A stretch of 64,000 nucleotides of DNA. It comes from Escherichia phage ECML-4. Shown here in pieces: positions 8,529-9,722 of this stretch (the stretch's first letter is position 1; every line of letters starts with the position of its first letter). The notes below the pieces were generated by a model that searched no databases, was not told the origin of the DNA, and saw only the letters and a program-made list of their open reading frames with translations. The DNA lies in sequence record JX128257; one strand, given 5' to 3'. A program made the position numbers and the translations under genes.

Positions 8529-9722
8529 TCAATCAGGGGTAAACTCGTTCACAGGAACTTGTTCCGGCATAGACAATTCGGGGCATGCTGCCTTCATTGG
8601 CTCAATATACGGCTTGCTACCAACAATCCAGAACAGAGCGTTTTCGTTGAGCAGTTCTGGCTTATGCTGTTGGATCCAGGTCATGACCTTGCCTTCATAG
8701 CGAGGATGCAGCTCAATATCACCCCACTGATAATCCATCAGGTCATTATAGCGAACCCAATTCGTTGTATGCAAATCCCAATGGTGTACTGCAAAGCGTG
8801 GGAGCGTTATCTCCGGCTCTCCCTTCTCGCGGATACCCATCAGGAGGCCAGCCAGCGAAACGCTCTTAGAGGCATGCTGAAGATCCTTCTTACCATACAC
8901 ATAATCTGGGTTGTCGTGATAGCAACGAGTGAAATCCGTTATGTGCGGAAGATTAGCTTGTTTTCCAATAATACGCAAACGGCTTTCAATAAAGTCCAGA
9001 CGGTTGGGACCAATCCCGATCAGATATACATTTTTCAGATTTGGTTTCGGGTGCATTGCCAGCCCTGTCAAAATGCTGGTACAAGAATTACATGAACCAG
9101 CAGGAATGATCAGATCTGTGATATGGTCCGGAATGTTAGCAACCTGCTCGCCGCCCAGCATATGAAATCCTGCAATCCTCTCCGGAGAATGCAACGTATG
9201 ATCCAGAGTGATCCCATACTCTAGATAATATGCTTTTGGATTCTGCTGCTCAATCAATTTCTTGCAGCGCGGCTGGATAGTGCTGTTGTAACCCGAACCG
9301 ACAAAGTTGAATTCGCTGCCGAACCAGGCGCTCATCTTCACCATGTCATGGTTCATACACGTGGTGGGTTTGGTAGCGCCCAGGACTGTAGTTGTCTTGC
9401 CGCCGAAATGCCGTGAGACTGCCGTCGCCATAGGGGACTGCGGACTACCAACGACTGTACCATGGATAAGGTCTGGGGAGCCTCCGGCCTTTAAATGCTC
9501 AACCATCAGCCAGATGGCCTGACGAAGTTTACTGCCGTTGATGCCCTGCTTGCCATCTGTATAGTTGGACAGCGGCGCGAAGTAATCTTCACGCTTGAAC
9601 CAGACCTGTTGATTGGTTTCAGGGTTGGCAACGAGTTCACACGGGGTGTGCTTGTAGAGGTAGTCTTCCCAGTGGACCAGGTTGCGGTCGAGGGAAAGTG
9701 TATCGAAGATGGACTTGTTCAT
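8529..9722 (-). CDS. PLP-dependent enzyme, fold-type II (ACC deaminase / D-cysteine desulfhydrase-like)
   Basis: GINGSKLRQ resembles the GGNKxRKLE lysine motif and GSPQSPMATAVSRHFG the GxxQSNHxxAxA motif of the ACC-deaminase family; 397 aa. Confidence 0.55.
   Translation of the reverse strand: MNKSIFDTLSLDRNLVHWEDYLYKHTPCELVANPETNQQVWFKREDYFAPLSNYTDGKQGINGSKLRQAIWLMVEHLKAGGSPDLIHGTVVGSPQSPMATAVSRHFGGKTTTVLGATKPTTCMNHDMVKMSAWFGSEFNFVGSGYNSTIQPRCKKLIEQQNPKAYYLEYGITLDHTLHSPERIAGFHMLGGEQVANIPDHITDLIIPAGSCNSCTSILTGLAMHPKPNLKNVYLIGIGPNRLDFIESRLRIIGKQANLPHITDFTRCYHDNPDYVYGKKDLQHASKSVSLAGLLMGIREKGEPEITLPRFAVHHWDLHTTNWVRYNDLMDYQWGDIELHPRYEGKVMTWIQQHKPELLNENALFWIVGSKPYIEPMKAACPELSMPEQVPVNEFTPD

Follow-up and report, generated by a model that had tools for sequence, protein, structure and literature searches.

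A gp226-type PLP enzyme of Escherichia phage ECML-4 with an ACC-deaminase-like fold, in all probability the decarboxylase that completes 5-NeOmdU thymidine hypermodification

The window analysed here is the whole stretch of 64,000 nucleotides from Escherichia phage ECML-4 (JX128257). It carries on its minus strand an open reading frame of 397 codons that occupies exactly positions 8529-9722 and lies in the genome of a Kuttervirus (Ackermannviridae). The gene and its translation signal are as follows:

8529-9722, minus strand: gene assigned as a PLP-dependent O-serinyl-thymidine (DNA) decarboxylase, ortholog of ViI gp226 / Vi01_182; 397 aa, 45 kDa, pI 6.4; assigned from the open reading frame, nucleotide and amino-acid identity, PHROG 3650, PALP and the AlphaFold2 (AF2) model.
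9730-9734, minus strand: Shine-Dalgarno sequence AGGAG, read directly from the sequence, with a 7-nt spacer to the ATG at 9722.

The Met encoded at 9722 is equivalent to the start in most homologs, and an in-frame stop codon (TAA) precedes it by 8 codons, which excludes in this phage the 27-aa N-terminal extension annotated in ViI. The gene is identical (100% at the nucleotide level) to its counterpart in Salmonella phage vB_Hercules_SET (OP423032.1) and 97-99% identical to those of Mutine, Maynard, Vi01 and many other Kuttervirus and Ackermannviridae phages, with DNA-level matches in 269 phage records. The ortholog in the type phage, Vi01, is annotated as Vi01_182 (note 'orf00226', protein YP_004327553), with which the protein shares 383 of 395 aligned residues (97%), establishing orthology to gp226. 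Most of the 12 substitutions fall within the first ~20 residues. The annotated ViI start lies 27 codons earlier, leaving the present copy 27 residues shorter at its N-terminus, and K92 of gp226 is therefore K65 here; neither the shorter N-terminus nor the substitutions near it are expected to alter function. The protein matches PHROG 3650 over its full length (E=5.5e-241), an unnamed family of 'unknown function'. By tblastn it occurs in 345 phage records, comprising Ackermannviridae of Salmonella, Klebsiella, Escherichia, Dickeya, Serratia and Erwinia, together with 61 Vibrio phages at ~52% identity.

Outside this gene the window departs slightly from OP423032.1, with a SNP at window position 123 and other small differences. 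At the window start the two sequences are offset by 9453, and at the PLP gene by 9454; for the start of the right-hand kinase the figure is apparently about 9479, assuming a common start codon. The shifting offset implies small indels between the two records.

Two further genes in the window encode enzymes of thymidine hypermodification, each cut by one end of the stretch:

2-718, minus strand: 5-hmdU DNA kinase 2 (ViI gp243 ortholog), N-terminal 239 codons, cut by the window start; PF18747 HMUD2, E=6.6e-137.
63238-64000, plus strand: second 5-hmdU DNA kinase of the HMUDK helical-domain type, N-terminal 254 codons, cut by the window end; PF18723 HMUDK_hel, E=2.7e-40.

The kinase 2 fragment, which belongs to an earlier step of the same pathway, is 100% identical to Vi01_196 (ViI gp243) over 239 aa, and the kinase at the right-hand end is presumed to be the gp67 ortholog. 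The amino-acid:DNA transferase is found in the Hercules record, about 0.8 kb to the left of the stretch that corresponds to the window (PF18724, E=3e-58), where it is 99% identical to the serine:DNA transferase gp247. Independent evidence for the association with these partners comes from a distant homolog, P0116 (41% identical), encoded on an 84-kb metagenomic phage contig (L005), where the genes run in the order HMUD2 kinase, PLP enzyme, 393-aa protein, HMUDK kinase and, beyond one unknown gene, a thymidylate-synthase-like gene. The 393-aa neighbour returned no Pfam match, and pairwise BLASTP identified it as a transferase homolog (28% identity, E=1e-25). The hypermodification genes of ViI-like phages are dispersed, the two kinases in the window being 62 kb apart, in contrast to the tight cluster of the metagenomic contig.

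Several other features of the region deserve mention. Between kinase 2 and the PLP gene lie a DNA polymerase gene and an NT5C-like nucleotidase gene; the latter is located at 1033-1875 on the minus strand, between the HMUD2 kinase and the polymerase, and its 280-aa product, which contains an NT5C-type deoxyribonucleotidase domain (E=7e-8), may help to bias the dNTP pool (dTMP versus 5-hmdUMP). Directly downstream of the PLP gene, on the same strand and after a gap of 39 nt, a 149-aa gene (8040-8489), the ortholog of Vi01_183 and annotated as hypothetical, encodes a predicted ADP-ribosyltransferase domain (Pfam ART-PolyVal, E=9e-11, 43.1 bits against a cut-off of 31.2; also DUF3990). A functional link between these two genes was considered and rejected as unlikely, given that the adjacency is lost in the distant cluster; there the PLP gene is flanked by a kinase and the transferase. 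On the other side, a minus-strand tRNA cluster at 11600-12863 comprises Ile(GAT), Ser(GCT), Tyr(GTA), Asn(GTT) and Met(CAT), whereas the GenBank record of the near-identical phage lacks a tRNA-Tyr, places a tRNA-Ile on the opposite strand and has one 'tRNA-OTHER/Undet'; the cluster is followed by roughly 1.8 kb (about 13480-15260) that carries no annotated gene in that record.

Conventional searches place the protein only loosely. Its match to Pfam PALP (E=2e-7, 31.1 bits) falls below the gathering cut-off of 35, and no NCBIfam model, those for ACC deaminase (ACCD), D-cysteine desulfhydrase (DCyD) and dehydratases included, matches it at E<=1; for these reasons its sequence-level membership of the PALP, ACCD and DCyD families is no more than remote. 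A single-sequence search of the PDB gave nothing meaningful (a chance Cdc25 match, E=0.26). An alignment of 34 homologs, 42-92% identical, served as the basis for both a profile search and an AF2 model. The profile retrieved from the PDB Pseudomonas ACC deaminase 1rqx (E=5.7e-6), yeast ACCD, Salmonella DCyD and 1j0a. The model is confident (pLDDT 90.7, pTM 0.89), residues 280-305 within a variable insert being the only poorly predicted part, and it displays the two-domain architecture of fold-type II enzymes with ACCD and DCyD structures as its nearest neighbours: all of the first 26 ranks of a Foldseek search against the PDB, at about 1e-10, were DCyD or ACCD. The protein is mildly acidic (pI 6.4) and no recognisable DNA-binding module was detected in it. 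Fold type is not discussed in the original gp226 papers, and to our knowledge no structure has been solved for any member of the gp226 family.

Active-site residues were mapped by aligning E. coli dcyD to the phage profile with hhalign (286 columns, E=3.6e-6, probability 87.5%, about 18% identity), the contact roles being taken from structures of Salmonella DCyD, or StDCyD (PMC3344862). The four elements located in this way are:

9528-9530, minus strand: codon of K65, the lysine predicted to form the Schiff base (internal aldimine); equivalent to K92 of ViI gp226 and Lys51 of DCyD/ACCD; invariant in 34/34 homologs.
9438-9446, minus strand: codons of S93-P94-Q95, the family signature in the putative substrate-carboxylate ('Asn') loop; equivalent to Ser78-Asn79-His80 of DCyD; invariant in 34/34 homologs.
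9084-9098, minus strand: codons of G209-S210-C211-N212-S213, the predicted PLP-phosphate-binding loop; equivalent to StDCyD Gly194-Thr198, at the N-terminus of helix 211-223.
8688-8699, minus strand: codons of Y342-E343-G344-K345, within the HPxYEGK motif; the counterparts are Tyr287-Thr288 in DCyD and Tyr294-Glu295 in Pseudomonas ACC deaminase.

The first-pass annotation, made from the sequence without database searches, had proposed an ACC-deaminase-fold PLP enzyme, and the homolog profile, the AF2 model and Foldseek all bear this out. It had also quoted two peptides, residues 60-68 (GINGSKLRQ) and residues 92-107 (GSPQSPMATAVSRHFG), as the PLP-lysine and phosphate-binding motifs respectively. 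The first assignment is upheld: S64-K65 aligns with Asn50-Lys51 of DCyD/ACCD, which contains the Schiff-base lysine, and the conservation check it had suggested for the catalytic lysine found K65 in all 34 homologs. The second needs to be revised. The segment GSPQSPMATAV corresponds to the substrate-carboxylate loop, G92-S93-P94-Q95 aligning with Gln77-Ser78-Asn79-His80, the StDCyD loop in which the substrate carboxylate is held by main-chain N atoms and a Ser hydroxyl (PMC3344862). This motif is a genuine hallmark of the family, though not the phosphate loop. That role is taken by the Gly-rich G209-S213 (GSCNS), which the model places between strand 203-207 and helix 211-223 and hhalign pairs with the Gly194-Thr198 segment that binds the PLP phosphate in StDCyD (PMC3344862). 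The aldimine lysine and a Gly-rich phosphate loop are thus both present, whereas the QSN motif of the carboxylate loop is not preserved, S93 being kept, Asn79 replaced by an invariant P94 and the Gln77 position variable (G/K/H).

Tyr287 of DCyD and Tyr294 of ACCD stack on PLP and abstract the C-alpha proton, and Thr315 of DCyD forms a hydrogen bond to the pyridine N1 (PMC3344862). Y342 and E343, both invariant, match the YEGK of ACCD, a correspondence seen by alignment only, and V367 occupies the position of Thr315. Altogether, K65, S93, P94, Q95, G209, N212, Y342, E343 and K345 are invariant in 34/34 homologs.

Taken at face value, such a scaffold could belong to a conventional lyase of the ACC-deaminase family or threonine-dehydratase type that acts on a free amino acid (ACC, D-cysteine, threonine or serine) and reprograms host amino-acid metabolism. 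Among solved structures, ACC deaminases and D-cysteine desulfhydrases are indeed the nearest relatives, the phage enzyme retains the Tyr-Glu pair found in true ACC deaminases, and record names such as 'threonine ammonia lyase', 'ACC deaminase/D-cysteine desulfhydrase-like' and 'carboxylate deaminase' point the same way. These names, however, are automatic transfers, the NCBIfam models for precisely those enzymes do not match, and the carboxylate-loop Asn has become an invariant Pro. Moreover, the homologs are encoded by phages, in linkage with genes for 5-hmdU kinases and a transferase rather than with genes of amino-acid metabolism, and the 97%-identical ortholog decarboxylates a DNA-borne serine, its omission stalling the pathway at a carboxylated intermediate. 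We therefore regard a free-amino-acid lyase as highly improbable.

The function of the ortholog has been worked out in phage ViI. Lee et al. (PNAS 2018, PMC5889632) listed gp226 as a 'PLP enzyme' unique to thymidine-hypermodifying phages and reconstituted 5-NeOmdU synthesis from lysates with it, and a later study (Lee et al. NAR 2021, PMC8989533) listed 'ViI gp226, YP_004327553, PLP-dependent decarboxylase'. In the latter work, purified gp226 was yellow, with absorbance at 410-425 nm, and converted O-serinyl-thymidine in DNA to a 301 u nucleoside, 5-(2-aminoethoxy)methyl-dU (5-NeOmdU). Without gp226 the reaction yielded a nucleoside 44 u above the final product, the pathway stopping at the carboxylated intermediate, and labelling with 13C3/15N-serine demonstrated that exactly one carbon is lost. 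From a Phyre2 model built on 1j0a, the authors predicted that the aldimine is formed by K92 (PMC8989533).

In light of this evidence, we conclude with high confidence that the product of the open reading frame is the last tailoring enzyme in the pathway by which ViI-like (Kuttervirus) phages hypermodify thymidine to 5-NeOmdU. The present analysis showed the orthology and the fold, conservation of the lysine and of the PLP-binding loops, and the existence of pathway partners, while PLP binding, action on DNA and one-carbon loss come from the literature on the 97%-identical ortholog (PMC8989533). The first-pass suggestion that the enzyme might mature an amino-acid-adducted DNA base was accordingly correct and had already been demonstrated for gp226 by Lee et al.; the enzyme is already characterised in ViI, and the window adds only another ortholog.

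By analogy with ViI, phage DNA would be replicated with 5-hydroxymethyl-dU, whose hydroxymethyl group would be phosphorylated by the 5-hmdU DNA kinases. The gp247 ortholog, an amino-acid:DNA transferase, would then swap the phosphate for L-serine, joined via its side-chain oxygen in an ether link to the thymine C5-methyl, to give 5-O-serinyl-thymidine within the DNA polymer. In the final step, K65 would carry PLP as an internal aldimine, the free alpha-amine of the serinyl group would transaldiminate to form the external aldimine, and loss of CO2, followed by reprotonation and release, would leave the aminoethoxy group of 5-NeOmdU.

It could be argued that a hypermodification enzyme of this kind performs another or an added reaction in ECML-4, such as beta-elimination regenerating 5-hmdU, transamination or racemisation, so that the final base is not 5-NeOmdU. 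Fold-type II enzymes normally carry out beta-elimination or replacement on O-substituted serines, of which O-serinyl-thymidine is one (PMC6411801); modification is only partial in related phages, 5-NeOmdU amounting to 16.4% of dT in phage phiHS2, whose DNA resists nearly all restriction enzymes tested; and the functional data come from gp226 rather than from this exact protein. Against this stand the 97% identity to gp226 with all invariant active-site residues unchanged, the transferase defining the substrate (99% identical to gp247), the clean one-carbon loss seen by isotope labelling, and the detection of 5-NeOmdU by LC-MS in several Ackermannviridae phages, where this base is by now textbook matter for later papers. 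Since the decarboxylase, transferase and kinase are 97-100% identical to those of ViI, a different end-product in ECML-4 would be very unlikely, and we give an altered or additional reaction hardly any weight.

The decarboxylase reading raises a question of reaction specificity. The members of fold-type II listed in a review (PMC6411801) are tryptophan synthase beta, cysteine synthases, dehydratases, threonine synthase and serine racemase; because these are elimination, replacement or racemase enzymes, decarboxylation would seem unusual for this fold, and an O-alkyl-serine would be the kind of substrate that such enzymes usually beta-eliminate. The partner of the pyridine N1 in fold-type II is normally Ser/Thr/Cys, as opposed to the acidic residue of fold-type I (PMC6411801). 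In the phage family, the invariant Glu343 that follows the stacking Tyr may replace the ACC-deaminase Glu facing the pyridine N, with Val367 in place of Thr/Ser. Protonation of N1 by Glu343 could then create a strong electron sink that stabilises the carbanion left by CO2 loss. The exchange of Asn for Pro in the carboxylate loop plausibly changes the position of the carboxylate relative to the PLP ring, and the invariant Ser-Pro-Gln loop might thereby re-orient or release the carboxylate, so that the bond from C-alpha to COO- would be cleaved instead of C-alpha-H and beta-elimination would be avoided. These proposed roles of Glu343, Val367 and Pro94 derive from the alignment at ~18% identity and a cofactor-free model. 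Tentatively, then, the gp226 family could be a true alpha-decarboxylase built on a fold-type II (tryptophan-synthase-beta / ACC-deaminase) scaffold, its specificity set by the Ser-Pro-Gln loop and a Glu at the pyridine N, a proposal that we consider possible but somewhat less likely than not. If true, it would constitute a new structure-function point on a known enzyme, not a new system.

A practical consequence concerns annotation. Public labels of the gene are inconsistent: besides 'hypothetical protein' and 'putative threonine ammonia lyase', it is called 'DNA repair protein', 'PLP-dependent lyase/thiolase' or 'carboxylate deaminase'. In the majority of the 345 phage records it is 'hypothetical' or 'threonine ammonia lyase', and none of the labels reflects the decarboxylase function demonstrated by experiment; its annotation in phage records should therefore be corrected. 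Completion of 5-NeOmdU by a gp226-type enzyme renders Ackermannviridae genomes resistant to most restriction endonucleases. This bears on phages considered for therapy of Salmonella, E. coli O157 and Klebsiella infections, and on enzymes that serve as tools to derivatise DNA. Restriction resistance and the relevance to therapy and tools have already been established by Lee, Weigele and colleagues.

Among known systems, ViI gp226 is the closest: beyond the overall identity, the two genes occupy the same place in the genome, flanked by the DNA polymerase on one side and the tRNA/baseplate region on the other, and they have in common the lysine and pathway partners that are 99-100% identical. ACC deaminase and D-cysteine desulfhydrase (PDB 1rqx, 1f2d, 1j0a, 4d8t) share the fold at only about 14-18% identity. 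Unlike them, the phage enzyme carries a variable, low-confidence insert of ~40 residues at 270-310 and stays beneath the curated family thresholds (Pfam PALP, NCBIfam); the substrate of gp226 is a residue on polymeric DNA, and its reaction is alpha-decarboxylation instead of ring-opening deamination or beta-elimination. Pseudomonas phage M6 gp52, of the 5-NedU pathway, was called homologous to gp226 by Lee et al. (PMC8989533) and is too distant to be found by tblastn with the present protein at E<=1e-3. Its reported chemistry is the same, namely decarboxylation, via the free alpha-amine, of an amino acid carried on the thymine C5-methyl in DNA, but its substrate is C-alpha-glycinyl-thymidine, for which a radical-SAM isomerase is needed first.
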